Origin: Nemertoderma westbladi | Taxonomy: Eukaryota > Animalia > Xenacoelomorpha | Reading direction: 5' to 3' | Assembly: GCA_032718475.1 (NCBI GenBank) | Contig: JAUCBJ010008071.1 | Coordinates: 1-64,000, forward strand | Length of the DNA stretch: 64,000 nucleotides | Shown: in pieces, positions 26,901-60,907 of the stretch | Numbering within the stretch: the first letter of the stretch is position 1 | Layout of the letters: each line of letters begins with the position of its first letter | Position numbers and translations under genes: made by a program | The notes under the pieces: model-generated | Databases searched by the model: none | The model's input: only the letters and a program-made list of their open reading frames with translations | What the model was told of the DNA's origin: nothing

Positions 26901-26901
26901 A

Positions 26902-27467
26902 GCTAGAGGGCGAAATGTCCCGAATGTGAAATTATTCTTCCATTTAGTTGTTTATGATCTGATTACGCTGAAACTTGTCATATATGTACTAGAAGACATC
27001 CTAAGTCTTTGTGTGGACAGTAATCGGTCCGGAGTTTTCGAGTCTGCCGCTAGAGGGCGAAATGTAGGAAAGTGATAACCTTTGCGAATTCCTTGATCTT
27101 AATCTATTTAAGCTGAATTTTGGAATATACAGTACCGGTATGTACTAGACCACATGCCTCGTCTTTGTGAGGAAGGTGATCGATCCGTAGTTCTTTAATA
27201 TGCCGCTAGAGGGCTAAATGTATGAAAGTGAAAACCTTCCAACATTTCGTTATTTATGATCCGTCAATCGGAAACTTGGTAGATATGTAATAGACCATAG
27301 GATGTGGCTTTGTAGGGAAACTAATCCTTCCTTCTTCAGTTACCCAGTCTCCCGCTAGAGGGTTAACGTTTTCCGGGAAAATCTTCTCCTATGTTTTTAT
27401 AATCCTTTCGAGTTGATACTTAGCATTAACTCATTTCACGTGCTGCGCGAAGGCCCCACTTCGTGTA
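26902..27467 (+). mobile_element. 5'-truncated second copy of the 20480-21744 element
   Basis: Near-identical to 21180-21744 including the cgtgctgcgcgaaggccccacttcgtgt end. Confidence 0.9.
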
Positions 27468-41990: not shown

Positions 41991-42165
41991 GAATCCAGTC
42001 TCCCGGGTATATCCAGCGGGTGAATGGACGCGCACTAGGCTGGCTTCTGCTAATGTTGTGTTTATTGGTATTAAATATTTGTCAATTTCTAAAGTCTATT
42101 TATAAACCAAAAGACATATAAATTTTGGCAGGTTAAACTGCTAAAGGTCTTCAAAAGCGCGTACA
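41991..42165 (+). repeat. Residual 3' 175 bp of the 5' LTR
   Basis: gaatccagtctcccggg...aaaagcgcgtaca matches 60733-60907. Confidence 0.88.
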
Positions 42166-42229
42166 ATAACAGTTATTGACTTTATTGCAGTAAGCAATAA
42201 AGTTGAAAGTACCGGTCGACCGGTAAACC

Positions 42230-44400
42230 TGAACCGGTACTGCTGTAGGTCTGTAGGCCCAACTGCCAGAATCGGTACTGCTGTAGGTCCGTAGGCCCAA
42301 CTGCCAGAATCGGTACTGCTGTAGGTCCGTAGGCCCAACTGCCAGAATCGGTACTGCTGTAGGTCCGTAGGCCCAACTGCCTGAACCGGTACTGCTGTAG
42401 GTCTGTAGGCCCAACTGTCCTAACCGGTACTTCCAGTATAAGTACATTAGTATTATTCGATTTTGATTATTGTATACCGGTAGGTCTCGATATTAAATCG
42501 GGGACGCCTGGTTTTTATTGGGATTTTACTTAGGTCTATTTCTGTCAGTTTATTTCCTAGTAAGTTAATATTGAGCTGAAGACGTGTAAGTCTGCTCAGA
42601 TTGTTCAGATAATTGTAGGCCGGACTATTGTCGGACTGTTGTTGAGTCTGGAGAGATTGCGGCGTGTGTGGAGTTTGTCCGATAAAGTGCCAGTTAGTAA
42701 GTTGGGGCAGCCAGAGCTGTAAGGTCAATCCCCTCTTAAAGAATAAGTCGTACTACCGTGTTAGAACGCATACTAACTAACCATTTCGGAATCTGCATAT
42801 ACTGTAGTTTATTTAGGCTTGACAGTATTCTACCAGCGTTTTGGCCTGTGTTTGTTTGTGTGGTCTGTTCAGGTACCGTAATAGTTATTACTCAGATATT
42901 TTGTAGGCTGGATTGTTGTCTAGCTATTATTAGGTCTGAAGAGATTGCTGCGTTGTAGAGTTTGTCTGATAAAGTGCCAGTTAGTAAGTTGGGGCAGCCA
43001 GTGCTGTAAGGTCAATCCCCTCTTAAAGAATAAGTCGTACTACCGTGTTAGAACGCATACTAACTAACCATTTTGGAATCTGCACATACTGTAGTTTATT
43101 TAGGCTTGGTGGTAGTCTGCCAGCGTTTGGTTTGTATTTGTTTGAGTATTCTGTACGGGTAGCGTAATATTTATTATTCAGAGTTTATGCGATTATTCGC
43201 AACATTCATGTCCCCAAGTTTATACCTACAGTAATTGTGCTTGTTACACATACCGTTATAGTTAAATTAACCCCGGTACTACACGGGCTGCTTGGCGTAG
43301 GTAAAGACTGGTGACTTTGTGCTCCGGTCACTCCAGCAGATGCCGTGGTTCTTTTAACTGTTCAAGTATATTTAACTACTGATTATTTGTTGTACCAGTA
43401 CTTGTACCTAATTTAGGGTTTAGTGTACAGTGCTTTCTGAAAGTAATTAGTGTGTAGGCAGTATATTTGTGTTGTAAAGTGGTTAATAGGCACGTTGGAT
43501 CTGGTAGTCCGCGGTAATTAACTTCCAGGTAGGAACACTCCGTGATACATAACGTAGTACCTATAGCGATACGGCTATAGGTCGTCAGGCGGTGGTATTT
43601 TTCCTATCTGGACAGTGCAATATATTTACTACTACTTATTATTTTCAAATACCGTAGTACCCTGTCCATTGTAATAATCAGAATCCTAACCCTTTGTTAG
43701 GCTGGTTTGTAGACTTCCTGTAAAATTACCCTAAAAATTTCGTACGTAATATTTTGTTGTGTTTAATTAGAGAATAAATCTCACCCGTATCGTACGTAAT
43801 TTATAGTATTAAGTAACTTAGGTAAATTAGAATTATCTGTTTTAGTGTCCAATAATTAGCACTTCACTGAGAGCGCACAGCTTCTGTGTAGGGACTCCCC
43901 CCAGAAATAATAACATTTATTTCAAATATTGACAAAACCCATTTTAAACGGGTATATAAATATTATAAATCAACTCAAACGATTTATAAATAGTAGGCCT
44001 GCCATACAACAACTAGGTCTCAATATCAGTTGGACTACTGCTTAAATAACGGTAACAAAGTAAGTTAAAGTAACCAAGTAACCCTAAAATATTCAGAAAT
44101 TCAATTATTCTAAAATAATTGACATACCGGTATTTACCATAGGCTTATTATATTTATTTCTATAAATTTGGGCTGAAATCATACCGGTATTCTGTAATTA
44201 ATTCTAGTTCATAATTATACTTATATATACTATAAGTGTAAGCTGTATACCGGTATTCACGATAGGCCTATTATATATTTATATATATTTGTGCTAAAAT
44301 TATATACCGGTACTCTGTGACAAAACTAGTTTACAATACTTATATATATTATAAGTGTATACCGGTATTCTAATACACTGTAATAAATTAACGGTACTAG
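42230..44400. repeat. Tandem repeats in the retrotransposon leader: 37-bp x5-6 (42230-42435), 287-bp duplication (~42640-43140), degenerate ataccggtattc units (44120-44400)
   Basis: Direct repeats read from sequence; gataaagtgcc at 42681 and 42968. Confidence 0.8.
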
Positions 44401-44476
44401 GCCAACGGTCATACTGAATTACTAGACTTGCTTTAACTGTAACTATAGCAGTAGGCATTCAACCGTATAGCTAAAC

Positions 44477-47400
44477 ATGTCTGACACCCAGCAAAACCTG
44501 TCAGACAGTCTAATCGATACAACCATCTGTGACACAGATAGGAGTGTGGAGCGATTAAGAAAGGAGTTCAGCTCACCTCCTACTGAAAGAAAGGTCATCC
44601 CTCCAGTAGTAGTATCAGACCCTAAGCTAATCCAACACCGTAGGTCTATCATCGGCACTCGGGCCCAAGTCAAACGGAACCAGGAAGCAGCTGTCCAACA
44701 GCAGCAACATCCTAGTCAAGAAACTTGTTCCCAGCGATCCGATAGCTCCAGTAGTTCGGATACTGTAGAGCTGACCCCCGAACGCGGAGTGCAGATGGCG
44801 GCTACAGCCTACTCGGATCCCCTTCTCACCCTTCCTGCCGCAGTGCTAACTACTATATTGATTGCGGTGGAGGAACATCAAGCCGATTGGGCGAGAAGTA
44901 AGCGAGCGACCCAAGATAGTTATGCGGGATACGCCAGGGAAGAATTGATGTCTATTGTCGAGTCACAATGGAACTTTCCCGGACCCGGACTCCCGTTAGA
45001 TTTGTCCGAAGCTACTTGGGAAGATATACACAGGATGGGAGTGACTAAAGATACAATGGATCCAGCTGTTTGGAAGAGGTCGGCAGCAGGATATGTGCAG
45101 GGATTCTTCGGCTCCTTAGAGCGATTGGAAGAACAACTGTTTCGACAACCCCAAGGACCTCAAGAGCAGGAAGAGCTGCTATATCAAGTACGCGAAAGAA
45201 CCCTACGCATTAGACTAATCCTATCAGCCTTTGAGGAAACTTCCAAAAGAAGACAGGACACGTCGCTGCAGGTTGCTGTCAAAACTTGGTTCCAGCGGGT
45301 AGGTATCAAAGTACAAGAAACGGCCCAGTGGAAATCCCAGCTGGCTGAGAGACTAACCTATGAAGAACCAACCGATGCCACCCTTTCTCAAGTGGAAAGC
45401 GAAGTGACCGCAGAGAGACCACGAACGAGAGACGCCATCGACATTTATCTGTCCGACTATCAGCGATTCCTAGGAGACGAAGAGTTGAGGAGACGGCTGT
45501 CTGGACTTTCCCCTAATAGTGAAGGAACCCAGCTTGTGTTGGACTCAATCGATGCTGAAATGTTAGCTGCAAACCAAGCTAAATTTGATGAAAAACTTCG
45601 CCTCGCTAGAGTCCAGGAAGAAGAAGTAAAGAAAAGGCGGATAGAGGACCGAAAAGCAGCGGCAATCGCAGAAGCAGAAGCGGAAAGAAAGGAGGCAGCG
45701 GCAATGGCAGAAGCAGAAGCAGAAAGAAAGGCGGCAAAGGCAATCGCAGAAGCAGAAGCGGATAGAAAGGAGGCAGCGGCAATGGCAGAAGCAGAAGCAG
45801 AAAGAAAGGCGGCAAAGGCAGTAGCAGAAGCAGAACGGAGAGCGTCTGAGGAGACCACACAACTGGAGTTGGAAAATCTTCAAGAGACGCAAGACAACAT
45901 AAATAAACAGTTAACTGCTAGTCACATGCAGATGATGAGAAGATCTACTCCCAAACGCCAGGGATACACATCATCGGAGGAAAGCGAAACCACCGATCCT
46001 GAAGGCGGAGGAAATAGATCTCGTCTAAGCAGGCGTAGAAAAACATCTCACCGTCACAAATTGCCTGATTTGCCCCCAGCTGTTAGAAGACAACTAGCTA
46101 GCACAGACTTAAGTAGTATAGAACCTACAGACCAAATTATTAAGATCAAAAAACTCCCTACTATAGTTGATGAGCCTGAAATAATTAGGCCTGTCGTTCC
46201 CAAAGTCACTCCTGTGCTAGAGACCCCTGTACTTCCAGAGCTTAACTCTAAATTCCCTTTACACAGTACTACACTGCCTGTACCCGGTAGAACAGTCCAT
46301 GAGAATATCCCTGTCCTGGAAGCTGAGAGAGAAATCAAAGATTTGTCTCCTGTCGTCCCGCGTCAGCCCGCTACAATGTTGGCGACTCCCGCTTCGGCGG
46401 TCGAGTGGGTAGAGGAGGGACGGCGGGGGATGAATCTCCTGCTCGGACAGATGCAGGAGACTGTCCACCAACTTAAGGGAACCGTAAGGGAAGGTAGGGC
46501 AGAATTGCAAGAAGTGCAGCAAAGTATCGCGCTAGAACGCGACAAATTAGTCAATATACAAAAAGGTATACCAATACCCCCTGTAAAATTGTGTCAACCT
46601 GTTAGGTCTGAAGTATTACATGCGCAAAGTGTGGAGCCTACACGCATCTATACTGCTAGTGAAGTAGAAACTCCTATAGCAAACCCTATTAAGGGTGATT
46701 ATAGACCTGTTGTGGATGATATTCCCTATAGACCTGATAATGATCCGAGAAATTTATATACCGATAATTCGATATTAAATAACACGATGGCCCAAGAAAG
46801 CTTTACGCGTCAGATGGCTAGAACAGAAGCCCGCCAAGCGGTCAAAGTGGGAGAGATCGTCAAATTCAATGGAGATGAGATGAAATGGTTACCTTTCAAC
46901 GAATATTACAAAGACAGCATACAGAACTCTGTGCTATCTAACGGAGAGAAACTTAGGTTCCTCATCAAGTGCTTGGAAGGACCTCCCAAGTTAATGGCGT
47001 TAAAGTTTATTGGACATCCAGAAGGATTAAGACAAGTTTGGGATACATTAAACATCAGGTATGGTAACAAGGATAACATAGCTAAGTATTTGTATGCAAA
47101 ATTAGTAGCCCCCCGAAACTTCCTTAGTAGCGGGATTATAGAGTTTTCCGATGAGATTCAGGAGATTTGTAGACAATTGGACTGGTTAGGTAAGTCTCAT
47201 GAATATCAGAGTTCCATGGTTATTGGAGCAGTAGTCTCTACTTTACCAAAGGGTGGAGTATGTACACGCTGGGACAAGAAAGTGTTGTATATGAGTGAGC
47301 AGCAACGACGAAGCCCTACCATGGCTGATCTCATGTCCTTCTTAGATGGTGAAGTAAAACTACAACTCATCAAGCAGTCCAGAGAGAAAACATCGGAAAA

Positions 47401-48121
47401 TAAGGTAAGTGAGAAACCCGCTTCTAGGAGAAGAGTAACACCAGTGTGTTACACTGACGACGGCGAAAGCCAAGCTTCTCAAGAAGAGGACAGCGGGAAA
47501 GACACTGACAAATTTTACTACGTTAACAAAACCCCAAAAGACGTAAGTAAATACAAGGCTCGAACCAACGTTAGGAGAGAACAGGTTGCCAAGACCCCTC
47601 CTCAGTCTCCTAACAGAATGCACGGAAGAAAGCCCGAAGAAAGAACGAGAGTGCATCAGGTTACCCAAGGTAAAGTGAGTAACATAAAACCTAACTGTGC
47701 GCTGTGCGACGGGACCCACCGTTTGAGTGCGTGTGCTGAATTTCTAAAGAAATCCCTTGTAGACAGACGTGCAGTCGTGTGGGATAAGCGGTTATGCTAT
47801 AATTGCCTCAGACCAGGACACCAACGGCGAACCTGTTACTCCGACGTAAAGTGTGCAAAGTGTAGCGCGAAACATCACATCTTGTTACACAGTGAGTTCG
47901 AACGAGACAACCCGAGTCAGGTAAGTGAGCCCGAACTACATGTCCAATTCAGTGATGTAAACGACACTGATCAAGAATCTGAGATGGAAGGATTCTATAC
48001 TGACGAATTCTCCGACGCCAACGAATCCTGTTATCTAATCAATACCGCAGTGTATCGAGCACTTACTTATGAAAAGGACACCGTTTCAGGAGAACAGCAA
48101 AATAGCAGTGCTAGTGACTAG
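44477..48121 (+). CDS. Bel/Pao Gag-like protein (1214 aa)
   Basis: DUF1759-like KFNGDEMKWLPF...EKLRFLIKCLEG...L..RYG; three Bel-type knuckles CALCDGTHRLSAC, CYNCLRPGHQRRTC, CAKCSAKHHILLH; long coiled-coil N-terminal extension. Confidence 0.9.
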   Translation: MSDTQQNLSDSLIDTTICDTDRSVERLRKEFSSPPTERKVIPPVVVSDPKLIQHRRSIIGTRAQVKRNQEAAVQQQQHPSQETCSQRSDSSSSSDTVELTPERGVQMAATAYSDPLLTLPAAVLTTILIAVEEHQADWARSKRATQDSYAGYAREELMSIVESQWNFPGPGLPLDLSEATWEDIHRMGVTKDTMDPAVWKRSAAGYVQGFFGSLERLEEQLFRQPQGPQEQEELLYQVRERTLRIRLILSAFEETSKRRQDTSLQVAVKTWFQRVGIKVQETAQWKSQLAERLTYEEPTDATLSQVESEVTAERPRTRDAIDIYLSDYQRFLGDEELRRRLSGLSPNSEGTQLVLDSIDAEMLAANQAKFDEKLRLARVQEEEVKKRRIEDRKAAAIAEAEAERKEAAAMAEAEAERKAAKAIAEAEADRKEAAAMAEAEAERKAAKAVAEAERRASEETTQLELENLQETQDNINKQLTASHMQMMRRSTPKRQGYTSSEESETTDPEGGGNRSRLSRRRKTSHRHKLPDLPPAVRRQLASTDLSSIEPTDQIIKIKKLPTIVDEPEIIRPVVPKVTPVLETPVLPELNSKFPLHSTTLPVPGRTVHENIPVLEAEREIKDLSPVVPRQPATMLATPASAVEWVEEGRRGMNLLLGQMQETVHQLKGTVREGRAELQEVQQSIALERDKLVNIQKGIPIPPVKLCQPVRSEVLHAQSVEPTRIYTASEVETPIANPIKGDYRPVVDDIPYRPDNDPRNLYTDNSILNNTMAQESFTRQMARTEARQAVKVGEIVKFNGDEMKWLPFNEYYKDSIQNSVLSNGEKLRFLIKCLEGPPKLMALKFIGHPEGLRQVWDTLNIRYGNKDNIAKYLYAKLVAPRNFLSSGIIEFSDEIQEICRQLDWLGKSHEYQSSMVIGAVVSTLPKGGVCTRWDKKVLYMSEQQRRSPTMADLMSFLDGEVKLQLIKQSREKTSENKVSEKPASRRRVTPVCYTDDGESQASQEEDSGKDTDKFYYVNKTPKDVSKYKARTNVRREQVAKTPPQSPNRMHGRKPEERTRVHQVTQGKVSNIKPNCALCDGTHRLSACAEFLKKSLVDRRAVVWDKRLCYNCLRPGHQRRTCYSDVKCAKCSAKHHILLHSEFERDNPSQVSEPELHVQFSDVNDTDQESEMEGFYTDEFSDANESCYLINTAVYRALTYEKDTVSGEQQNSSASD

Positions 48122-48124
48122 CTG

Positions 48125-49388
48125 TCCACCTGGTGAAATACTGGATATAAATATTGACGTTAGATTTATTATTTACCTTCTTATGTTTATGAGGGGGGGG
48201 GGGGGGGGGGGGGGGGGTAGTGGTGCAAGGACTTGGATTGTGGATTATACTTAAATTATAATTAGATTTAAAATTAGAATGACATAAATACATATTTTTC
48301 GTGCAGAGTGCCAAAGAGACTCACCCGGGTGAGACAAAAAGGAAGCGTGACCCCGCGCCCGGGTGAGACAAAAATGGAGAGTGTCCCCTCGCCGGGTGTG
48401 ACAAAATGAAGCGTGACCCCGCGCCCGGGTGAGACAAAAATTAAGCGTGACCCCGCGCCCGGGTGAGACAAAAAATGAAGCGTGACCCCGCGCCCGGGTG
48501 AGATAAAAATGGAGAGTGACCCCTCGCCGGGTGTGACAAAATGAAGCGTGACCCCGCGCCCGGGTGAGACAAAATGAAGAGTGACCCCTCGCCGGGTGAG
48601 GCAAAAATGAAGCGTGCCCCACGCCCGGGTGAGACAAATAATTAAGCGTGGCCCCGCGCCCGGGTGAGACAAAAGATGAAGCGTGGCCCCGCGCCCGGGT
48701 GAGACAAAAATGGAGAGTGACCCCTCGCCGGGTGAGACAAAAATGAAGCGTGACTCCAAGCCAGGGTGAGACAAACAAATTATGAGTTGTAAGGGACAAA
48801 TATCTATATATAAATATTTCAGTTTAATAAGAACAATTTTAATTTATTTAAAAATAAAGATTTGCTTGTGATTGAACGAAGTTCAGAATTTAGACTGTTC
48901 CACATTAACGATCCTTGAAGAGCCAGTGATTGATGAGCCACATTGAGTCGAACTCTAGGTAACCTATATAAACCTGATGCTGCTGAGCGTGTGTTATGAG
49001 AATGTATATCACTAAATTTTGTAAACAAATGGGATAAAGAACCAGGAACATTATGGTTTATATCATACATTAGTTTACAAACTTGGTATTTATATAACTT
49101 CTCTAGAGGTAACACCTTTAGTTGGCGGTACAGGGGTAGTGAGGATGTACGGTAGTGACTAAATGTAATTACTCGTAAAATTTTATTTATTTTTGTCCTT
49201 ATAGGCTTTAAAATTGAGTCACACGCAGCCCCCCAAACAATTAAGCCATAATTAGTAAGAATTCATAATTATTGAATTCACAATTATAATATGTAATATA
49301 ATAATATATGTATAATATAATATATAATTATAATAATGGAATATATGGAATATTATATATATAATATGAATTCACAATTCATGAATAC
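48125..49388 (-). mobile_element. 5'-truncated L2/Crack-like LINE inserted between gag and protease
   Basis: 48819-49260 minus: LPLEKLYKYQVCKLMY...HSHNTR...QGSLMWNSL...KLKLFLLN*, a typical LINE RT C-terminus; interrupts KIAVLV.../VRVHGP...ALLDSGS. Confidence 0.75.
48320..48775. repeat. ~36-bp minisatellite (cgcccgggtgagacaaaaatgaagcgtgacccc), ~12 copies
   Basis: Direct tandem array within the inserted segment. Confidence 0.92.
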
Positions 49389-49937
49389 GTAAGAGTTCAC
49401 GGTCCTAACAAAAGTTACATAGTGAACGCACTCCTTGACTCCGGCAGCACAGGAACATTCATCGATCAAGAACTAGCCGAAGATATCTTTGCTGGACAAC
49501 CCAAATTCCGGACTAAATTGAACATGTCAGGAATTATGCAGGATTGGAAATCTACCCTAACGGCAGACTACTATGTAGGTGTGTTGTCCACCCCCCCAGG
49601 ATAAATTAGGAGCACAAGGTATAAGGTCGGTAAAAATGGTGGCTATAAAGAACTTCGCTACTACTCAAGCAGACCTTTATAATTGGGACGAGGATGAGAG
49701 CATCCAACATCTTAAGATACCTCGATTCCAGACAGATTATCCTGGAGGTGCAAATACTCATCGGCCAAAATGCGCATGAGGCGCTCGAGACATTGGAGAA
49801 ACGGCCTGCTCAACCGCAGCCACTGCAAACCTATGCGGTAAGAACTAGAGTAGGTTGGTACTTTACTGGCCCTTCCCGCAGAACTCTCGAAGAGAGAATG
49901 CCACAAGAACGAATATAACCAAGTAAACGATGGGGAA
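49389..49937 (+). pseudogene. Bel/Pao aspartyl protease region, frameshifted
   Basis: VRVHGPNKSYIVNALLDSGSTGTFI; ILIGQNAHEAL...AVRTRVGWYFTGP spread over three successive frames. Confidence 0.85.
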
Positions 49938-52900
49938 GTGGAGAGCAGTGAGGTGGACGAACTAACTGAGGGAACACCATACTCCTCAGATAATGACGAC
50001 ATCTACCAACTCTTCGATGAAGAGAACACCATCGACCTACTTACAGAAAACAAAACGTGGAAAAATCAGGTGAACCTATGTCAACTGATTCGCCCATCGG
50101 AACCCATTGATTACAATGACGAACTAAATGACGAGATAGAGCGCTACAACGCTAGAACTCGGGACGAACTAGCCGTACGATTCTTTACTCAAGAACTGGT
50201 AGAGCCCAATTCATACGATAAGGCTCTATCGATAGAAGAAGAAAGAGCCAAGCAAATCCAGGAAACAACTACACGTTTTTTAAAGGACCAAGGTAGATAT
50301 GAAATCAGCCTACCATTTCGAAAACGAGAACCTAGATTTATAAATAACAGACCCTTGGCAGAGAAAAGAATCGCTCAATTACATCGACGCCTTACGGCTA
50401 ATGCTTCAGCTAAAGAAATGTACCAAACTCAGTTGAAGAAATTTATAACAAAGGGATACGCGGAGCGAGTACCGGAAGGAACACCAGTGACTGAGAGAAC
50501 GTATTACTTAACACATCATTACGTTCCCAAACCCGGTAAACCCCATGAAGTACGAGTCGTATTCGATGGCTCTGCTCTATATATGGGCCAATCCCTCAAT
50601 TCCGAGTTGTTACCAGGACCCAACTTACTCCAATCCTTGTTGGGAATACTTTTAAGATTAAGACAATATTCCATCGCGTTCGCCTCCGATATAGAAGGAA
50701 TGTTCTTACAAGTCAAGGCGCTGGATAGAGATAGAGACAGTCTGAGATTTCTGTGGTGGCCTGAAGGAGACCTCAACCAGAAACCGGTAGAGTACTGGAT
50801 GACCATCCAGGCTTTTGGGATCATATCAAGCCCTTCCAACGCCTGCTCCGTGGTGCGAACCACTGCGAATGACAACCGAGACGCCTTCTCCAAAGAGGTG
50901 ATAGACAACATCAAACGTAATATATACATGGACGACAATTTAAGGTCCCTTCCATCAGTAGAAGAAGCCATAGATGTCGCGAAAGGAACGGTAGAGTGTT
51001 TGAAAAGAGGTGGATTTCGACTGACGAAATTCACCAGCAACTCCCGTGAGTTTCTGGAAGCGATACCGGTAGAAGACCGAGGAGCGAAAGACCTAGACTT
51101 AATAAAGGACGATCTTCCTGAAACCAAGACGCTTGGCTTGAAGTGGGACACTGAAAGAGACATCCTGTTTTTTCAGCTAAAACAGCGAGATAATCCAGTT
51201 CGGACCAAACGGATTTGTTTAAGTATCCTGAGCACTTATTTCGACCCATTGGGATTTATTAGCCCAGTTATATTGATTGCTCGGAGTTTAGTACAACAAA
51301 TGTGGCTTGAAAACCACTCATGGGACGATCCGCTTAAGGGAGAACTGTTGAAGAAATGGATGAAATGGGAAGATTCTCTACCGGCCATCGAGAACTTTAT
51401 AATTTCCCGTGCATATTTTGGTCATGTTCTTCCTACGTATTCCTATCAACTCCATGTGTTTGGAGACGCCAGCGACATGGGAATAGGTATAGTAGCATAT
51501 CTGCGAGTCGAAACTCCGGATGGAATCAAAGTCGCCTTGGTTACCTCTAAGGCATTGATTAACAACAAGTTAAAGGTTCCTCGAGCGGAGTTAAAGGCGG
51601 CTTTATACGCTACAGCCATCGGCCGGAACGTAACAGAACAAATCGACTATCCACTGGAGAAAACGGTTTATTGGACCGACGCTTTACTCGTGTTGGAGTA
51701 TCTAACCAATGAAGTCTGTCAGTTCAGCGTTTTTGTTACTAACAGGGTAGCTATTATTCTTAGTCGCACAAAGATAGATCAATGGAGACATTGTCCTGGT
51801 ACGATTAATCCAGCCGATATCGCCTCCAGGGGAGCAACTCCACAGGAACTGATAGATACTCCAGATTGGTTGGGTGGACCCGACTTCCTGAGCAAGGAAG
51901 AGGATGAATGGCCTCCTCACCTTACTACGGCGGAGATTAGACAAGCCAAGGGAGCGGAGACAGTCAAACCTAAAACCCGGGCGAGTAAATCGAAGTTATT
52001 TAAACCGACGATCGATCTATCTGTATTACATACTTCCGGGAATGATGCTTCGGATCCACAATCCCTCGACACAAATAAGTCTGTTGTGGAAATTAGAGAT
52101 AGAGATTGGAAATCTGGAATACCAGACATCTCGCAAGGAATCTCACCCCTGCTGCAGAGAGCAATGCATCACTACAGTTCCTGGAATCGGCTCTGTAAGG
52201 CCGTCACGTATTTAAGGAGATGTTTTCATCATCACTACTCCAGGACGAAGACAATTAGTGATACCGCTCCATTGACATCTGCGCAAGTTCATGTTATTAA
52301 AAATTTACCCAAATATAAGACATCCGACCGGTTTCTAAAGGAGAAAATTAGTCACCAGGAGCATGAAGAAACAAATAAGCAGATACTGAGACTCCTGCAA
52401 TGCTATGAGGATTCCGATAAGTATTTCCTGTTGTTGAGAAATCCGCAGATGCGCTTAAGGGATCGATTCTCTAGCACAATGATAGATGGGTTAATACGTG
52501 TTGGAGGAAGGCTCACCAATGCGCCATTATCCTTTGACACTAAATTCCCTATACTCATTAGAAATCTTGAAGTACAAATCAAGATGATTGTAGATGTTCA
52601 CAGTAAACTTTATCATGCTGGTAGAGAACGAGTTCTTCGTGAAATTCGAACTCGCTATTATTTTGATAAACCCCGTAGAGCTCTGAACCAAGTTCTTAGG
52701 AACTGCATACCCTGTAGGAAAGCATTCAGTAGGCCTTTAACACAGCGAGAGGCAGAATTACGTAGGGAACGAGTAAGCTTCTATGAACCACCTTTTACTA
52801 ATACTGGTGTAGATTTATTTGGCCCTATTGAAGTATATCGTGCTAGGACTATAGTCAAGAGATGGTGTGTCATCTTCGTATGCATGACTTGTAGAGCCAT

Positions 52901-53810
52901 CCATCTCGATATGGTGAACGATCTATCTACCAACAGCTTCGTCTTAAGTTTACGCCGACAGATCGCTCGCTTCGGGACGAGTAATACCATGAGATCGGAT
53001 AAGGGAACGAATTTCATTGGTGCCAATAACGAAATACAGGCTTACGTGAAGGACTGGAACCAAAGACAGGTGGACGATCAGCTAAGGATAACAGCGTCTA
53101 GCTGGACCTTCAACGCCGCCGACGCCCCTTGGTGGGGAGGAAGTTGGGAGAGATTAATTAGAAGTGTCAAGACTGCATTTCACTTTATAGTGCCATGCCG
53201 CGCGTATCTCACCGACGAACTTTTGCGGACATTAATGGAGGAAATAGCTGCCTATCTCAACGAGAGACCGCTTATGCCAGTCTCATCGAGTCCCGATTCC
53301 CTGGAAGCGCTAACACCCGCGCACTTCCTACTGAAGAAACCTGTAGCCATGGTCCCACGATCGGAGATTGCCGACGGAGACGAATACTGCCGCCGAACTT
53401 GGCAACTTATGCAGTTGCTATCCCGTCGTTTCGCTGACCATTTCGAGAAACATTATCTGCCCACGCTACAACTTCGAACTAAGTGGTTTGCGCAGCAAGA
53501 AAACGTCAGCGCCAGAGATATGGTGCTTATTGTAGATTCAGACCTCCCACGTAAATGGTGGCAGACAGGTCGTATCATCGAGACTCACATCTCGGATGAT
53601 GGTTTAGTACGCTCGGTAGAACTCGTCGTCATGCGGCGTAACTTCAAGAAGCCAGGCATAATCTTTGAGACGCAACAACTCAACCGCCCAGTTGGTCGTT
53701 TATGTTTACTGGAAAGAGACAGAGAACTCTCCGGAAACTATGGAAGGCAAGACACTCTTCCCACGATCACCTCCCTAATTCCTCAAATATCTAGGGACTC
53801 CCCAACGTGA
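49938..53810 (+). CDS. Bel/Pao Pol: RT, RNase H (Pao-type) and integrase (1290 aa open frame)
   Basis: YYLTHH, RVVFDGS, SLNSELLPGPNL, DIEGMFLQV, FGIISSP, YMDD, LGLKW, FDPLG, LHVFGDAS, PRAELKAA, WTDA, NPADIASRG, H...CIPC, GVDLFGP, SDKGTNF, GGSWERLI, DGLVR. Confidence 0.96.
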   Translation: MESSEVDELTEGTPYSSDNDDIYQLFDEENTIDLLTENKTWKNQVNLCQLIRPSEPIDYNDELNDEIERYNARTRDELAVRFFTQELVEPNSYDKALSIEEERAKQIQETTTRFLKDQGRYEISLPFRKREPRFINNRPLAEKRIAQLHRRLTANASAKEMYQTQLKKFITKGYAERVPEGTPVTERTYYLTHHYVPKPGKPHEVRVVFDGSALYMGQSLNSELLPGPNLLQSLLGILLRLRQYSIAFASDIEGMFLQVKALDRDRDSLRFLWWPEGDLNQKPVEYWMTIQAFGIISSPSNACSVVRTTANDNRDAFSKEVIDNIKRNIYMDDNLRSLPSVEEAIDVAKGTVECLKRGGFRLTKFTSNSREFLEAIPVEDRGAKDLDLIKDDLPETKTLGLKWDTERDILFFQLKQRDNPVRTKRICLSILSTYFDPLGFISPVILIARSLVQQMWLENHSWDDPLKGELLKKWMKWEDSLPAIENFIISRAYFGHVLPTYSYQLHVFGDASDMGIGIVAYLRVETPDGIKVALVTSKALINNKLKVPRAELKAALYATAIGRNVTEQIDYPLEKTVYWTDALLVLEYLTNEVCQFSVFVTNRVAIILSRTKIDQWRHCPGTINPADIASRGATPQELIDTPDWLGGPDFLSKEEDEWPPHLTTAEIRQAKGAETVKPKTRASKSKLFKPTIDLSVLHTSGNDASDPQSLDTNKSVVEIRDRDWKSGIPDISQGISPLLQRAMHHYSSWNRLCKAVTYLRRCFHHHYSRTKTISDTAPLTSAQVHVIKNLPKYKTSDRFLKEKISHQEHEETNKQILRLLQCYEDSDKYFLLLRNPQMRLRDRFSSTMIDGLIRVGGRLTNAPLSFDTKFPILIRNLEVQIKMIVDVHSKLYHAGRERVLREIRTRYYFDKPRRALNQVLRNCIPCRKAFSRPLTQREAELRRERVSFYEPPFTNTGVDLFGPIEVYRARTIVKRWCVIFVCMTCRAIHLDMVNDLSTNSFVLSLRRQIARFGTSNTMRSDKGTNFIGANNEIQAYVKDWNQRQVDDQLRITASSWTFNAADAPWWGGSWERLIRSVKTAFHFIVPCRAYLTDELLRTLMEEIAAYLNERPLMPVSSSPDSLEALTPAHFLLKKPVAMVPRSEIADGDEYCRRTWQLMQLLSRRFADHFEKHYLPTLQLRTKWFAQQENVSARDMVLIVDSDLPRKWWQTGRIIETHISDDGLVRSVELVVMRRNFKKPGIIFETQQLNRPVGRLCLLERDRELSGNYGRQDTLPTITSLIPQISRDSPT

Positions 53811-54334
53811 TACGTCTGGAGTGGGTGTATGACTATATTGTTTTATCTATTTTTATTATATTTTTATATGCGAACTTTATTATGTACTTTATTATAATCG
53901 TTTTTATTCAATTTTATTTAGTAGAAGGTTATTTTAGATTATTTGGTATATTAGTGCAATATATTAGTGTTTATTACGTAATTACATATATAATATATAT
54001 TTAGTATGACGGCGAGAAATAATTTTTCTCTTTCCTTACTGTCCGTATCATATTATAAATACGTGACTACAGTAAGATGAAATGTCCGTACTTATTAAAG
54101 TACAATAAAGCCACTACTATATTCAAGTATTATTGGTAGGCAGAGTATTAGGAATGCAAAGTTCAGATCCTCGTGTCTCGGCTAAACCAAGCTCTGGGTA
54201 GACCTTGGAAACGACTTGCCTCTTCACACTGACATTGCTTCGTGCGATATTGCTCTTCTACCTTATATTAAATAATACATATAGTAGCGTGATGTCCATA
54301 TAACAGTAGCGTAAAACGCAAATAAATCTGTTAA

Positions 54335-54615
54335 ACCTTTTGACCATCTGTAATTCTAGTCGATTAAGATATCGCGGCACCCACCGATATACTTGAAAGA
54401 CAAATTCTAGAATCAGTGGTTAACGTCCCCAGACAAGTTCTGGAATAAATTGGTGCCCATCTTGAATATTAATTTAATATTTATTAAAATCTGTAAAATT
54501 CAAATCCTTTAAAATTTCTAGTCAATTAAGATATCGCAGCACTTACCGATACTCTTAAAAGACAATTTTATAGAATTAGGGATCCTCAGTCCCCAGACAT
54601 GCTCTGGAATAAAAA
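54335..54615. repeat. ~165-bp direct duplication in the pol-ORF3 spacer
   Basis: ttctagtc.attaagatatcgc.gcac...gtccccagaca.g.tctggaataaa occurs twice. Confidence 0.7.
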
Positions 54616-55437
54616 TTATCATATATATTATTTTAACATCAAATAATAAAATTCACGGGAATAAATTTAAATTCATATTTTAAATGAATTTCATAAATTG
54701 TCGTTTTGTGCAATTTATAACATTCCCAAAATTCCATTAATTAATAGATCATGGGAGCGGAGATTCATCCTATTGAGTGTATTAGAGTGCGAGAATCTCC
54801 AACATATAGTCAATAGCCGATAAAATTAATAAAATCATGCATAAAGAGGATATTGACAATTAAAGAATTACTATTAAATAGCATCCCAGATCTGTATGCA
54901 TGAGAATTACCCTAATTCTACCGCTAGCATTCCATAATGTCACCATAGCAACACCCACGCTAGAATTAGAAGCAAGTTAAGAGAACAATAGAAAGCTTGT
55001 CCCATTGCATAGCATAGAGAATACATAGCACACTGTTAGTATCCAAGGATACACAGTAATAACGTGACATTCTGGAAGGCACTGACTAACGGACAAATGG
55101 CCTGTATGTGTACAATTGGTGACAGTTGTGTGGAATTTGTGCGTTTATAGGTGAATGTTACTGCTAAAGTATGTTTACAGTAGCTAGTCGCAATTGTAAA
55201 AGTAGCCCAACTCTCCTATAGAAAGAACCTCAAGTGGATCCAAGCCTTTGGGACGGACAGTGGAGTGACTTGTGCCGGTTATCGTTGTCGTGCTGTTGCT
55301 ACATGTTGGCGTAAACACCGCGACGACGGTACATCGGCGCTGAGAATCCCACTGTCCGGGGGCAAAGAGAGGTAGGCAGCGACGCCCGCTTGCCTAAACA
55401 TAAACTCATTTGATATTAATAAACTCAGATAGCAGAT

Positions 55438-57690
55438 ATGACGGAGTTGATAGAAGATGATCTTGGTATTAGGGAGCGATATACTCTACCTTTGCAAGCA
55501 TTTGTGGATAGCTTAATACGCGGTGAAGCCGATCCAACCATTACGGAGGACGATGGTCGTTATATCGAACCGCCGATGTCCCAAGAGCAACTTGCGCGTG
55601 AATTGGATTATCGAAAATTCACCGCTCGCTATACGAATCGTAAGGGTACGTATATGGACTTCTTAACTACCGGCCATCCTATCGATTTACATGATACGGA
55701 CGATGTAGATACAGAGAGGGAAATGGTTCTATTTAAATATCATACCCAGCGGAGTCGTAACGATAAACCGAGAATAGATCACGAAAATTCTATTCGTAAT
55801 AGACTGGAAAGAGAAAACGTTGAAGAACCGGATAAACGCATCGACTTCAACGAATACCTAGAATTTTTGAGAGAAACCTATCTCAACATCGCCAGTCAGC
55901 AGAACCTAGAGACTCGATATCCTCAAGGTATACATCATGACCCTGTGGTAGAACTCAAACGGCTCTATTTCACGATGATGTATCTTACCGCCGATCGTCC
56001 ACTACCTGTTATCCCGGATAGTTTTGAACAAATGGAAGAATATTGCAAAACTGGAGAACGATCACCCGCGTTTCCTCTACAGGACGTACGTCTTTGGTAT
56101 TATTGTGACGAATGCCCTAGACCCAACCAACAAACTGAAAGACACAAACAACCGCGGAGACGTTGCGCTAAACACAGCTTTACGCGTTACACTTACGGGA
56201 GTTTCGAGCGAAACCTGTTCGACGTACCACCTACGATCGCTCGTCTTAAACGATCACTGAATAAACCCATGATCAGAGTTCCGGAATACTCGGTCAGGCC
56301 TCCTCATTCCCTAGTGAGACCTCAAACTCTTGATCCTAACAGTATCACTGATCCTCCCGAACTATATTCCCTGTTCAAAGACTTAGTGTTACCCGAACAA
56401 TTAATCGGTGGTGCTCCGGTAGTGGGTTCGTTAGACATTCGCCCATCCTACTTAGCCGGATTGGGACGCGGGCAGCTAATATCGCCCTTTGATCCTTACA
56501 ATCGTCCAGGATTAAACCCGATGCAACCCGCCACGGAAGTCGAGGAGAGCGTTATAAGAAACGCTTTAGACGCTATTCGACAGAAGATCGGAAAGGGAAC
56601 ACAAGATTGTTTAGAGAAACGTAAATTACAACAACAAGTCCAATCGGTGAAGGAGTTAGCCTTGCCACAGTTCGATAGAGAAATCCAAAACCTCGAGGAA
56701 GACATCGAGCTTGGACGCACGTATTCTCTACAAGAATTTTTAGATGAACGCTTACAGAGACAAGCGGAAGAAAATCTACTCGAGGAGAAACACACGAAAA
56801 TGGACGAGAGAGAAGAAGCCGCTTTAGCCCAACCTGAAGCTCAAATCCTTATGACGGACCTCTACTCTCAAACCATTCGTCATCCCTCGATGATTCCACA
56901 TTTCGGAGACAAACTTTTCGCGACGATACAACCTCAACCGGTTGATATCAGTACAGGATCGCAAAATCTTATCGCTGACGCCCCTATGTTACAGCGTCCG
57001 CCGATAGAGGCCGCTCGTGTTGACGGTATACTCGTTGAACCTCCGGACAATCGAGCAGATCTTGTCCGTCGTATGGTACACGATGTCAACATACGCGCTA
57101 GACCTTTACAGAACTCGTTTTATGGGATTAAAGACCACCCTTATTACGTTAATCTGACTCAATATTATATGGTAAAACCAGAAGACCCGACGCATAATTT
57201 AAAGTTTCCACCACTGATAAATCCTCTAGACATTGTCGAACTCGAACAATTGCAGAAACATCTGGATCAGTTAGTAAAAGTAAACTCATTTAGAAAACCA
57301 TATAACATTTCTAGAATCGAGAAAGATATAGAACCCCCTTATAATCTCGATGGATTTATTAAAACTCGATTAGTCCATTGGAATCTAGATGTATTATTTG
57401 AAGAAGAGAAAATACAAAGATATGGAAATGTGGAGTCGTATACCACTCGGCACATGAAGTATAGTGATCTCCCTGACGCTAACCAATGCGCCACCTTGTG
57501 GCATCCAGTAGGGATGACCCTAGAGAACGCCACCAAGGAGTGGAATGAAACTCTTAATGTTATTGAGATGTATGGAGTTGTCACCTACGATAATGAAGGT
57601 AGCGTTCCGGTCGGAGAACTAGGAACTACGCGCATGATCCACATACGCGGATTAGCTGGTTCTACCCACGTGTTTACTCGACGTGATTGA
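55438..57690 (+). CDS. Retrotransposon accessory ORF3 (750 aa), unknown N-terminal region; C-terminus holds the ExoI motif of a DEDDy 3'-5' exonuclease
   Basis: Long intact ORF inside the LTR-bounded unit; CDEC...CAKH motif, coiled coil, C-terminal VVTYDNEG...MIHI; no signal peptide or TM segment visible. Confidence 0.8.
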   Translation: MTELIEDDLGIRERYTLPLQAFVDSLIRGEADPTITEDDGRYIEPPMSQEQLARELDYRKFTARYTNRKGTYMDFLTTGHPIDLHDTDDVDTEREMVLFKYHTQRSRNDKPRIDHENSIRNRLERENVEEPDKRIDFNEYLEFLRETYLNIASQQNLETRYPQGIHHDPVVELKRLYFTMMYLTADRPLPVIPDSFEQMEEYCKTGERSPAFPLQDVRLWYYCDECPRPNQQTERHKQPRRRCAKHSFTRYTYGSFERNLFDVPPTIARLKRSLNKPMIRVPEYSVRPPHSLVRPQTLDPNSITDPPELYSLFKDLVLPEQLIGGAPVVGSLDIRPSYLAGLGRGQLISPFDPYNRPGLNPMQPATEVEESVIRNALDAIRQKIGKGTQDCLEKRKLQQQVQSVKELALPQFDREIQNLEEDIELGRTYSLQEFLDERLQRQAEENLLEEKHTKMDEREEAALAQPEAQILMTDLYSQTIRHPSMIPHFGDKLFATIQPQPVDISTGSQNLIADAPMLQRPPIEAARVDGILVEPPDNRADLVRRMVHDVNIRARPLQNSFYGIKDHPYYVNLTQYYMVKPEDPTHNLKFPPLINPLDIVELEQLQKHLDQLVKVNSFRKPYNISRIEKDIEPPYNLDGFIKTRLVHWNLDVLFEEEKIQRYGNVESYTTRHMKYSDLPDANQCATLWHPVGMTLENATKEWNETLNVIEMYGVVTYDNEGSVPVGELGTTRMIHIRGLAGSTHVFTRRD

Positions 57691-59680
57691 TTATTCCTTT
57701 GAAACTCTCACCGAAACACAAAGGAATCTCCGACATGGACAATTCGAACTCGCGCAGCGTTACGTCATTGACACCGAACGCAAACCGGCCATGGGTATCG
57801 ATGGATCGATGTTACCCCAGCCCGCACTCGAGATGTTGTTCAACGAAAGAATCCTTAAAATCGGCTCAGCTGTTTATGGAGATCTCCAAAACGACTTTCG
57901 GAATATGGAGAACATTCCATACCCTTTCGTTGATACTCAGCTGATTGCTCCCTGGGCAGAAGGTCGAGGTTTCTTCCGCACCATGTATGCTAATACGTCT
58001 AGCAACATTACAAAGGTGCAACGAACTTCCATCGGACATCTTGCCTTTCAGGAATACGGATGGAATTTCAAAGTCGGAAATCCCATTAACTATCAACAAG
58101 TATACGGAGACCATTATTCTCGATTATACTTTGATGGACCATTGACCGCACCTGGCGCCGTGTATAGCTTCATGAGTGTTCCACTCCGTCCCTCCTTAGC
58201 TATATACACGATCTTTGAAAACACCGCACTTGCCGGTTGGCTAGCCGATGTGTGCAGTCGTACTATACGCGCCCATCCATTAATACTTGGGACCAAACTC
58301 GCTAAGCTAGATGAACATAATAAATTCATCCGCTTCGAATGTTTCCGGCGATTTTTAACCCCATTCCGCAACGTGGATAGCCAATTTAAAGACCGCGCTT
58401 TGACCAAGCTCAGCCTAAGAAACTCAGCTGCAGAGAAGTTGGATAGCGCTGGATTCGCCATTTTCAAAGAGATTTGTATATCGAACTTGCACTCCTCTGT
58501 TATACAAAGACCTCGAATCCCCACAGGTTATTCTGTCGTGGAAATTCAGACAATAGGTCCACCTGAAGAGACAGACACGCCCACCTCAGCTATGCACTTG
58601 GAAGACGAACCAATATGTCTAGAATCTGAGGAGATTCAGCCTATCGCGCCCCGGAACAGCGACAATGATTACATCATAGAATGGTATCAAGGTCCACAGT
58701 GTCTCACTGCGTACGATTATCGACATGCCAACTATGTTTCTAGGCAACGTTGTCGGTTATGCGCATCGAGAGACCATGATACGCCCATGGACACAAACGT
58801 CCGCTGTTCCTATTTCCAAGAACAACCGACTATGGAAATTTATTGCGCATATTGCAGACTCAATAACTTGCACATTTTTGCGGTTTGCCCTCAATTTATG
58901 ACTCAATGTCACCATTGTCAACTAAAGGGACACGCCAGTTTCGATTGCCCTTTTAATCGCGATTTGGAAAGCGTAGATGAAATGATCACACTACGTTACA
59001 TCAGAGTTTGGGAAGCGAACGCTGATTTACATTGTGATTCGCGCCATCGTTATTATCCTGGACGCGCTTACGAAGGAGTTTATGCGTTCCATCCTTATCT
59101 ATTCGCTTCTGTCGAACAGAAATCACGCATATCGAGTTACGAGCTACTGAAGCGCGTCGGAGAATGTATTTCAACCAAATTCGTACGCAAATTTCTCAGG
59201 AGTGTTAATCCTAGCGACCTTCATTCCTATAACTTAATCAATTATATCCGTCAGGATCCGGACTATGGAGACTTATTTGTTAACTCACACCCCGAGTTAC
59301 AGGAAGTATATCGACGGCCTTACGAATACCGAGCCCGCGAACGCGAGTTGGAAAGAACCATTAAACCCCGGAGGTTTCTAACTGCCTATGGTCCACCCAC
59401 GGCTCTCGTTCAGACCACTCGTAAAGGACCCGTAAGAGCGGCTGTCTTAAAACGAGCTCTCAAAGCCGTTAGACCCCTCTCCCCCGACGTTGATGTCAAT
59501 CAACCCGGTACTTCGACTGGCGGATACACCGACCATAATCCTACACCCTCTGATGCAATCATATTGCACCCTTCACCCAGGAGTTATAGCCCTCCTTGTA
59601 AAGTGGCTCGCCCCAAAGAGAAAAAGACTCTGGCTAGCTTTAAAAAACTGCGTAAACGCCGTCCGCGCAAGAAAGACTAA
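57683..59680 (+). CDS. Accessory ORF4 (665 aa): rest of the DEDDy exonuclease (ExoII/III), three CCHC-type zinc knuckles, basic tail; probably continuous with ORF3
   Basis: LPQPALEMLFNERILKIGSAVYGD, FVDTQ, SIGHLA, PLRPSLAIYTIFE; CRLCASRDH...C, CAYC...H....C, CHHCQLKGHASFDC; KKLRKRRPRKKD; starts at GTG overlapping the ORF3 end by 8 nt in the +1 frame. Confidence 0.78.
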   Translation: MIDYSFETLTETQRNLRHGQFELAQRYVIDTERKPAMGIDGSMLPQPALEMLFNERILKIGSAVYGDLQNDFRNMENIPYPFVDTQLIAPWAEGRGFFRTMYANTSSNITKVQRTSIGHLAFQEYGWNFKVGNPINYQQVYGDHYSRLYFDGPLTAPGAVYSFMSVPLRPSLAIYTIFENTALAGWLADVCSRTIRAHPLILGTKLAKLDEHNKFIRFECFRRFLTPFRNVDSQFKDRALTKLSLRNSAAEKLDSAGFAIFKEICISNLHSSVIQRPRIPTGYSVVEIQTIGPPEETDTPTSAMHLEDEPICLESEEIQPIAPRNSDNDYIIEWYQGPQCLTAYDYRHANYVSRQRCRLCASRDHDTPMDTNVRCSYFQEQPTMEIYCAYCRLNNLHIFAVCPQFMTQCHHCQLKGHASFDCPFNRDLESVDEMITLRYIRVWEANADLHCDSRHRYYPGRAYEGVYAFHPYLFASVEQKSRISSYELLKRVGECISTKFVRKFLRSVNPSDLHSYNLINYIRQDPDYGDLFVNSHPELQEVYRRPYEYRARERELERTIKPRRFLTAYGPPTALVQTTRKGPVRAAVLKRALKAVRPLSPDVDVNQPGTSTGGYTDHNPTPSDAIILHPSPRSYSPPCKVARPKEKKTLASFKKLRKRRPRKKD

Positions 59681-59758
59681 CTGTTTAGAGTATTTACATA
59701 TATTAGAAACTGTGATTTTTGTATATTTATAAACTTGAATCCCATTTTCTGGGAGCGG

Positions 59759-60907
59759 TGTAAACTTTATAAGTCCCCCTCGTCCGCAAAGTACCGTTAT
59801 AGGTGTTTTAACGGACATAAAAGTCATTCTTCTGTATGTGTGCTTTGGCGGACATGGTAAGGCAAAAAACCCGCAATGCGTCAAATACCCTGGCACAGCT
59901 TAGCCTTGATGATTCAGATTACGACATCTAACAGCTGGTTGCTGACATGGAAACGGCCATTGGACACATGGTTCTTTGTTTAGCTTAACAGCCAATCAGA
60001 GCGATTTTTTCTGTCGATGTGGAGATATTTGGCAGATCATGCTAGGAGTGTTCAGTCTTACTGTTTTTTCTTGATACTGTTTTGTTGTTTCTATCTAGGC
60101 CAGGAACACCGGCTCTAGAGTCAATTCGTTTCAGACTTTAGAAGAAACATTAGTAGGCTTAGATTATAGAGCGTATAACTATTATCTTAACAACTCAATC
60201 GGCACATATATTGTCATATCATATCTTAACCTACCGTCTTAATGCTTTTTACTGTTGTTATTATTTTGTATCAGTTGGTTGAATATTATTTGGAGAACAT
60301 CTATAAAGAACCCAAATTTCCCAATTTTCTTGATACACTACAGGTTAGAGAGACAGGTTACATATAGCGATTGCGACTTATATTATTGTGGTTTGTAGTG
60401 AATTTAATGCTATTTGATAATCACTACATGAGTCAATTGCTGTTCTCTTTATATATGATAAAATTCATTGACAGTCGGCAGATTAGTGTGCATGATTGTG
60501 ACTGATAACTAAGCATTTCCTAAAGAATGCGCCTCATACGTGAATCATAAGCCTTACCGACTTACCGTTGTGTTTAGTATAAGTCATATCTCTGTTTACC
60601 TAGATAGAGCGTCACGTCCTAAAGGAACTGTTAATATTTCCCGAAAGTGAATAATATTGGTCAGAAATTATTTATTAACGATCAATCGAATAATACAGTA
60701 AGCTTACACTGCAATAACAATCTAAGCCCTCCGAATCCAGTCTCCCGGGTATATCCAGCGGGTGAATGGACGCGCACTAGGCTGGCTTCGGCTAATGTTG
60801 TGTTTATTGGTATTAAATACTTGTCATATTCTAAAGTCTATTTATAAACCAAAAGACATATAAATTTTGGCAGGTTAAACTGCTAAAGGTCTTCAAAAGC
60901 GCGTACA
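59759..60907 (+). repeat. Putative complete 3' LTR (~1149 bp), TGTA...TACA
   Basis: Preceded by purine-rich gggagcgg (PPT-like) 70 bp after the ORF4 stop; 4-bp terminal inverted repeat; last 175 bp match the 5' remnant. The left boundary is inferred. Confidence 0.65.

Follow-up and report, generated by a model that had tools for sequence, protein, structure and literature searches.

The 64,000-nt stretch of Nemertoderma westbladi DNA analysed here (contig JAUCBJ010008071.1, positions 1 to 64,000; the window) holds on its + strand, at 41987-60909, a Bel/Pao retrotransposon of ∼18.6 kb with a long accessory coding region downstream of pol. This region comprises two open reading frames (ORFs), ORF3 and ORF4, and is predicted to encode a DEDDy-type 3'-5' exonuclease-like domain joined to three CCHC zinc knuckles. 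The element runs from a leader through gag, a broken protease region, pol, a spacer, ORF3 and ORF4 to a right-hand repeat, with the following internal features.

42182-44476, + strand: untranslated leader of 2.3 kb with 38-, 287- and 123-bp tandem repeats
44471-48121, + strand: gag, with DUF1759 (E = 2e-12), two C-terminal zinc knuckles and coiled-coil-like repeats of 13 amino acids (aa)
48120-49370 (ends approximate), - strand: secondary insertion with poly-G, a 34-bp tandem array, an antisense 147-aa frame and an AT microsatellite
49371-49853, + strand: aspartic protease region, interrupted by stops and frame changes in the present copy
49854-53810, + strand: pol, 1,318 aa, with reverse transcriptase (RT), RNase H (Peptidase_A17) and integrase (Integrase_H2C2, DUF5641)
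53830-55437, + strand: AT-rich 1.6-kb spacer 3' of pol, with TATAAA at 54054 and a 162-bp duplication
55438-57690, + strand: ORF3, 750 aa from its ATG, with a predicted long helical stretch at ∼367-480 and no homolog for its first ∼700 aa in the searches named below
57656-57690, + strand: 35-nt overlap of the ORF3 and ORF4 frames, site of a frame change
57656-59680, + strand: ORF4, 674 aa from stop to stop and 665 aa from a GTG

The assignment to Bel/Pao is made on Pfam domains and their order. Peptidase_A17 (E = 5e-36) and DUF5641 (E = 3e-18) in pol, together with DUF1759 in gag, all exceed the Pfam cut-offs; Integrase_H2C2 matches with an E value of 2e-7, the RT motif YMDD lies at 50925, and the domains follow one another as gag, protease, RT, RNase H and integrase, with the insertion separating gag from protease. 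The gag, protease and RT-RNase H-integrase regions that the initial annotation had read from motifs are thus present, the protease motif near 49430 matching Asp_protease_2 below the cut-off (E = 0.002). The present copy is damaged, with ∼1.25 kb of unrelated DNA lying between gag and protease and with stops and frame changes in the protease region. We take the antisense 147-aa frame in the insertion to resemble the RT tail of a long interspersed nuclear element (LINE), a resemblance without Pfam support. Scans of viral and metagenome contigs recovered no relatives of pol. In a survey of BEL/Pao elements the median length was 7,382 bp and the maximum 22,762 bp (PMC3118150 file S9), so that the length found here is unusual, yet not unique.

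The boundaries of the element rest on a terminal repeat and on candidate primer and polypurine signals.

41987-42165, + strand: surviving 3' end of the 5' long terminal repeat (LTR), its left part probably lost; 97% identical to 60729-60907 and ending in CA
42168-42181, + strand: candidate primer-binding site (possible self-priming), 13 of 14 positions pairing with 60431-60444, one of them G:U, at -15.9 kcal/mol
53816-53829, + strand: first G-rich tract with TGTA, a relic LTR start, an internal purine tract or the start of a 7-kb LTR
59749-59758, + strand: second G-rich tract, followed by TGTA, most likely the polypurine tract
59759-60907, + strand: most likely the full 3' LTR of 1,149 bp, with a putative start and an end fixed by the repeat

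The direct repeat (41987-42167 and 60729-60909) spans 181 bp with 5 differences and 97% identity, and it closes the unit after ORF4. When 40001-62500 is compared with the rest of the window, it is the sole long match once poly-G and a common dispersed repeat (62008-62165) are set aside. It carries CA at its end, but no TG at its start; no target-site duplication is readable at the repeat, and the DNA upstream of 41987 does not match that preceding the right copy. Because it lacks both a TG start and a readable target-site duplication, it is probably not a whole LTR, as a complete repeat of 175 bp had been proposed to be, but the stump of a cut-down 5' LTR. The suggestion that the insertion is fairly young is weak, since it relies on 5 differences over 181 bp and fits poorly with the damage to the copy. 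The DNA immediately left of the stump (41500-41986) resembles, by eye, the interior of another repeat and may mark the deletion in the 5' LTR.

The interval from the pol stop to the right repeat contains 367 TG sites. The G-richest upstream tracts belong to two of them, and both of these sites carry TGTA, which is the inverted match of the TACA at the LTR end; TGTA is read at 23 of the 367 sites, so that the pairing has a post hoc chance near 0.004 (the product worked by hand). One TGTA lies 15 nt past the pol stop (53826) and the other 78 nt past the ORF4 stop (59759); the corresponding polypurine candidates, at 53816 and 59749, each hold 7 purines in 10 positions. We lean toward an arrangement in which the accessory gene lies between pol and a 3' LTR of 1.15 kb, whose 5' twin has been cut to 181 bp. 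Bel/Pao LTRs range from 0.2 to 1.2 kb (PMC8742986). The signals at 53816-53829 and 59749-59762 are near-identical, and the post-pol spacer may be a decayed LTR serving as internal promoter; as a recognisable second LTR copy the spacer was rejected, with a local alignment score of 41 against a shuffle mean of 39.6.

The primer-binding site of Bel/Pao elements is an 18-nt sequence matching tRNA-Arg or tRNA-Gly. Here the LTR end is not followed by a TGG start, and no tRNA-type primer site was seen there, host tRNAs not having been compared. The candidate pairing of 42168-42181 with 60431-60444 was matched by 2 of 100 shuffles, yet at least 10 of the 48 20-mers used as controls attain -16.9 kcal/mol; as a lead only, a leader start that pairs with this region fits an LTR longer than 181 bp. 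A look-alike of the pairing motif lies at 54808 in the post-pol spacer. The 64-kb window contains no tRNA genes, and its one Rfam match is at chance level (U12, E = 0.16).

As the initial annotation described, the 1.6-kb spacer is followed by two long ORFs on the same strand. Their lengths are not expected by chance, since the longest ORF in 300 shuffles of the ORF3/ORF4 region was 222 aa. Among the variants listed from other copies, 10 of 15 in ORF3 (p = 0.004) and 13 of 16 in pol (p = 4e-5) are synonymous, compared with 0.30 expected, and it is this mostly synonymous variation that indicates that ORF3 is maintained as coding sequence. Neither frame contains a membrane helix (highest 19-residue hydropathy 1.21 in ORF3 and 1.10 in ORF4), which rules out an env-like protein; the absence of a transmembrane helix claimed earlier therefore holds by hydropathy, while for the signal peptide, also said to be lacking, no dedicated predictor was run. 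An intron-containing host gene, the case named at the outset as contrary to an element-borne gene, was not seen and is ruled out by the uninterrupted frames and the multicopy state of ORF3/4. Searches of Pfam, NCBIfam, word-based protein indexes, PDB sequences and the Atlas returned no relative of the first 700 residues of ORF3, and word-based searches with ORF3 or ORF4 likewise returned none.

The nuclease and zinc-knuckle motifs first noticed by eye are recovered in ORF4, which we divide as follows.

57656-58280, + strand: N-terminal part, DEDDy-like 3'-5' exonuclease core with ExoII D76, a DTQ motif and an ExoIII-like Y184-x3-E188
58751-58948, + strand: three CCHC-type zinc knuckles (C-x2-C...H...C; ORF4 residues 366-431; zf-CCHC_3 E = 0.01)
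58949-59680, + strand: C-terminal part, with a basic tail

One homolog of ORF4 was found among 1.84 billion protein representatives, a 648-aa protein that forms a singleton cluster and that we call P0001 (E = 5e-7). Its N-terminal domain is 29% identical to that of ORF4 over 171 aa, and it also carries three knuckles. The Atlas places P0001 with the PF01612 3'-5' exonuclease and zf-CCHC families at a lead-level score of 0.86, and 10 of its 10 best family matches share a family or clan. The best NCBIfam match of ORF4 itself is RNase D, at an E value of 0.0046 that is far under the curated cut-off. In a comparison with a DEDDy profile built from 13 bacterial exonucleases of the RNase D and polymerase-I types, the scores of the ORF4 head and of the P0001 domain each exceeded those of 1000 of 1000 shuffles, over the stretch from ExoII to DTQ (ORF4 residues 57-102). 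ExoIII takes the form Y-x3-E, as the best block match in P0001 and in ORF4 through its alignment to P0001, and P0001 retains D62, E64, D130 and E233. These similarities lead us to predict that ORF4 comprises a DEDDy-type 3'-5' exonuclease-like domain and three CCHC knuckles. A profile of ORF4 and P0001 found only P0001 within the length classes searched, scans of viral and metagenome contigs with ORF4 found no relative, PDB sequence searches gave knuckle matches only, for P0001, and a comparison of the P0001 domain with plasmids gave one chance match. P0001 derives from an ENA contig of 9,449 nt and has an unbroken DEDDy-like domain; among Atlas clusters that combine these two domains, the nearest is mostly of euglenozoan origin.

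The initial annotation reported ORF3 and ORF4 as two intact frames. That they are two separate intact genes is doubtful, because the frames share 35 nt and because the exonuclease-like domain appears to begin upstream of the first ATG of ORF4; this ATG (Met46) comes too late to take in the domain's first strands. Strands 1 and 2 are best fitted jointly at ORF3 residues 713-737, with a D-x-E motif (D718, E720) and a spacing of 19, as in 12 of 13 references; when the plausible region was shuffled, 26 of 2000 shuffles reached the score of this fit. Following these ORF3-tail strands, the best match for strand 3 falls in the ORF4 frame, and one contig from sequencing run X5 (record 19) crosses the junction and differs in net length such that both frames come into register. 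Because the nuclease fold appears to begin in the tail of ORF3, we consider it likely that ORF3 and ORF4 are parts of one protein of ∼1,400 aa split by a frame change. This frame change may be a lesion of the present copy, to which we give somewhat less than an even chance, while a frameshift common to the family is unlikely; by eye, we saw neither a standard slippery site nor an in-frame GT-AG intron at the junction.

Of 8 public sequencing runs listed, 7 (from 4 studies) match part of the stretch; the best-matching run may be the window's own sample. Over 49400-61040, matching contigs number 83,169 of 8,938,268 in run X1, 23,157 of 1,581,921 in X3, 487 of 15,198,257 in X5 and 14 of 10,740,083 in X7, and they cover 30 of 30 bins in X1, X3 and X5 and 15 of 30 in X7. 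The family, including its accessory region, is highly repeated in the host, as the counts for X1 and X3, from two studies, show. Summed depth was rejected as a copy-number measure, since contig depth does not equal copy number; long contigs of X3 with depths of 4,562-7,329 are found over pol as well as over ORF3 and ORF4. This like depth, and the repeat that encloses all three, suggest that pol and ORF3/4 are linked in other copies as well; of the linkage that the initial annotation had proposed to check, the multicopy state of both parts is borne out, but no listed contig bridges pol and ORF3. Some other copies have internal deletions in ORF3/4 (55465-59519), with joints at 55806-58600, 56368-58802 and 56792-59519.

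The proposal of a Bel/Pao lineage with a non-env accessory region for nucleic-acid processing is accordingly upheld in its outline, judged from sequence: the region is multicopy, ORF3 varies mostly synonymously, and ORF4 is exonuclease-like with knuckles. Zinc knuckles bind single-stranded nucleic acid, DEDDy domains take nucleotides off 3' ends, and the DEDDy proteins Nibbler/MUT-7 and EXD1 act in small-RNA pathways. We hypothesize, at about even odds in our own estimation, that this damaged Bel/Pao copy carries a gene of ∼1,400 codons for a predicted DEDDy exonuclease-knuckle protein that would act on RNA 3' ends and so weaken small-RNA silencing. The accessory gene would be made from a subgenomic RNA starting in the LTR-like spacer; an RNA of its own would be needed because the gene lies far behind the pol stop, and an internal promoter is suggested by the TATAAA at 54054 and the LTR-like start of the spacer. 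The knuckles would hold single-stranded RNA, the nuclease would trim or destroy 3' ends, for example those of PIWI-interacting RNA (piRNA) precursors or slicing products, and the helical part of ORF3 would place the protein in an RNA granule or particle. A small-RNA link of DEDDy proteins has been raised for the ORF3s of rotifer elements (PMC5408684). Interference with host silencing is the reading we favour, with confidence no better than evenly divided, over a replication helper or a dead-nuclease adaptor, because replication in most Bel/Pao elements proceeds with no such gene and because the family is very abundant.

A number of observations weigh against this reading. At the level of the domain, every exonuclease score is under its curated cut-off and the Atlas score is below 0.9; the ExoIII block ranks a different ORF4 site first, and the fourth carboxylate is Glu; AlphaFold models both have predicted local distance difference test (pLDDT) values of ∼35 (35.7 from a 2-sequence alignment). 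At the junction, 23 of 400 shuffles of the whole ORF3 scored at least as high as the fit of strands 1 and 2, a chance site in pol scores 18.1 against 18.2 for the ORF3 tail, and a rival D-x-E within ORF4 residues 34-42 (VIDTE) has the best single-block score. The ORF3 tail is not significantly similar to P0001 (1540 of 5000 shuffles; 224 of 1000 in a profile test), and an X-bridged read-through of the junction lengthened no match. A junction indel is absent among the 12 listed of 126 indels, and two diverged contigs align gaplessly over 57547-57681, where both stop, which argues against a private lesion there. The two listed ORF4 variants are both nonsynonymous, within a variant test that comprises the 33 in-ORF rows of the 40 listed among 2,147, the 7 outside ORFs having been dropped. 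To these may be added the lack, among the contigs listed, of one joining pol to ORF3 in another copy, and the fact that no run matching the stretch is recorded as RNA. Finally, neither clear selection nor a clear copy-number benefit was found for the rotifer ORF3s (PMC5408684).

The strongest rival, possible though on the whole unlikely, is that the same protein is a replication helper, which would act within the particle to trim 3' ends of RNA, primer or cDNA belonging to the element, with the knuckles serving as a second nucleocapsid for a genome of great length. The match of the P0001 knuckles to the nucleocapsid of human immunodeficiency virus (HIV; E = 1e-4) is consistent with such a role, as are a genome of ∼18.6 kb compared with 4.2-10 kb for Belpaoviridae (PMC8742986) and a possible self-primer, which would require end processing; an auxiliary replication role is also preferred for the rotifer ORF3s (PMC5408684). 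Yet most Bel/Pao elements, with a median of 7.4 kb (PMC3118150 file S9), replicate without such a gene, and Gag carries knuckles of its own. The copies with internal ORF3/4 deletions also speak against a helper, although complementation in trans is conceivable.

A structural rival, which we regard as improbable, places the start of the 3' LTR at 53826, giving an LTR of 7,082 bp (53826-60907) with the accessory gene inside U3 and duplicated in full-length copies. The G-rich tract and TGTA 15 nt past the pol stop would be its left end, one X7 contig enters unrelated DNA before 53832, and summed depth peaks in the spacer and near the right end. Against it, an equally good tract and TGTA 78 nt past the ORF4 stop yield a normal LTR of 1.15 kb, and the longest LTR among the 7,861 elements of the BEL/Pao survey is 2,427 bp (PMC3118150 file S9). 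The high-depth X3 contigs on pol and ORF3/4 are similar in depth rather than 1:2, and the X7 contig is single and lies in AT-rich DNA.

Still less probable, in our judgement, is a catalytically dead nuclease, in which case the protein would bind RNA as an adaptor or decoy, in the manner of EXD1, Egalitarian or Maelstrom, and would move or shield the element's RNA. The ExoIII position is Glu in both ORF4 and P0001, ORF4 translated alone would be without a well-placed ExoI, and the second Atlas match is an EXD1-like cluster (0.77), all of which speak for such an adaptor. P0001, however, keeps its four carboxylates (D62, E64, D130, E233), the window keeps matching candidates if the ORF3 tail is used, and rotifer ORFs with one Asp-to-Glu swap were judged possibly active (PMC5408684).

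It is very improbable that an ordinary Bel/Pao element closes with an LTR after pol and that a separate repeat bearing ORF3/4 merely happens to come next. In favour of this view, the post-pol tract resembles a normal element end, and the contigs listed include none that joins pol to ORF3. Against it, the 181-bp repeat links the DNA upstream of gag with the end of the ORF3/4 region, the post-pol spacer has no twin upstream of gag, and the first 14 nt of the leader pair with the region downstream of ORF4. Least probable of all is a combined version in which an anti-silencing exonuclease has its catalytic domain completed through a conserved ribosomal frameshift, sits in a 7-kb LTR and is spread by solo LTRs.

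Outside the element, the window is very rich in repeats, among them large tandem arrays at 11056-14592 (88 bp x 40), 17968-18964 (10 bp x 100) and 30621-31446 (36 bp x 23). An uninterrupted LINE ORF of 1,045 aa with endonuclease and RT, which we take to be RTE-like, lies at 34637-37774 (+), and a LINE RT fragment of 490 aa at 6953-8425 (+). A 645-aa low-complexity frame at 25014-26951 (-) has no Pfam match and is probably a large host exon.

It is largely an open question whether retrotransposons of animals code for suppressors of piRNA or small interfering RNA silencing, and an abundant family that keeps an exonuclease-knuckle gene under apparent purifying selection would offer a concrete test protein, with P0001 as an unbroken homolog. 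If the proposed reading is correct, DEDDy cargo would extend from the gypsy-type elements of rotifers to Bel/Pao, together with a 700-aa orphan region; if the frame change is common to the family, the accessory gene would also contain a recoding site.

With Belpaoviridae and the genus Semotivirus (PMC8742986; PMC3118150) the element shares gag, the order protease-RT-RNase H-integrase and the Bel/Pao-specific Pfam domains. The candidate purine-rich tract of ∼10 nt would be a further common feature, and the LTR of ∼1.15 kb matches if the boundary at 59759 is right. The element differs in exceeding the 4.2-10 kb of Belpaoviridae (PMC8742986) and in a third gene that is not env-like. Among the papers listed, the open literature yielded no Bel/Pao element with an exonuclease gene, nor any exonuclease cargo combined with knuckles and an orphan N-terminal region of 700 aa (Repbase, subscription journals and most supplements lay outside the search), and passages of a study of mollusc BEL/Pao elements (PMC6238403) and of one on small accessory ORFs (bioRxiv 10.1101/2025.03.14.642691) describe no such gene. 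Other large LTR elements with accessory coding capacity include Burro, a planarian gypsy element, and Ogre, a plant gypsy element with LTRs of 1.9-6.5 kb (PMC6431247); both belong to another superfamily, and the cargo named for them is apoptosis or ubiquitin domains or unknown ORFs. Dada DNA transposons, like the element described here, are mobile elements with a DEDDy 3'-5' exonuclease, but theirs is set in a DDE transposase and is thought to process cut DNA ends (PMC3706591). The cellular DEDDy proteins MUT-7/Nibbler, EXD1, WRN exonuclease and RNase D have the order and spacing of the core motifs in common with the present domain, the significant alignment being confined to the ExoII region.

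The closest parallel is found in bdelloid rotifers, where DEDDy ORF3s have been described in Juno/Vesta elements and in Terminons (PMC5408684, PMC6431247, PMC6338049). As here, these are non-env genes past pol that encode an RNase D-like DEDDy domain, with one Asp-to-Glu change, without a membrane helix and with a function that is putative in both (PMC5408684). The likeness is one of description rather than of sequence comparison, and there are differences: the rotifer elements are gypsy-type and their families have few copies, whereas the present element has Bel/Pao domains and its family is very abundant; Glu stands at the fourth position here, compared with DEED in the rotifer ORF3; and the exonuclease here has three CCHC knuckles attached and probably the 700-aa orphan region as well, unlike the rotifer ORF3 (PMC5408684). 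In our analysis, the arrangement is like that of the rotifer DEDDy ORF3, but its carrier is Bel/Pao and its domain layout is new.

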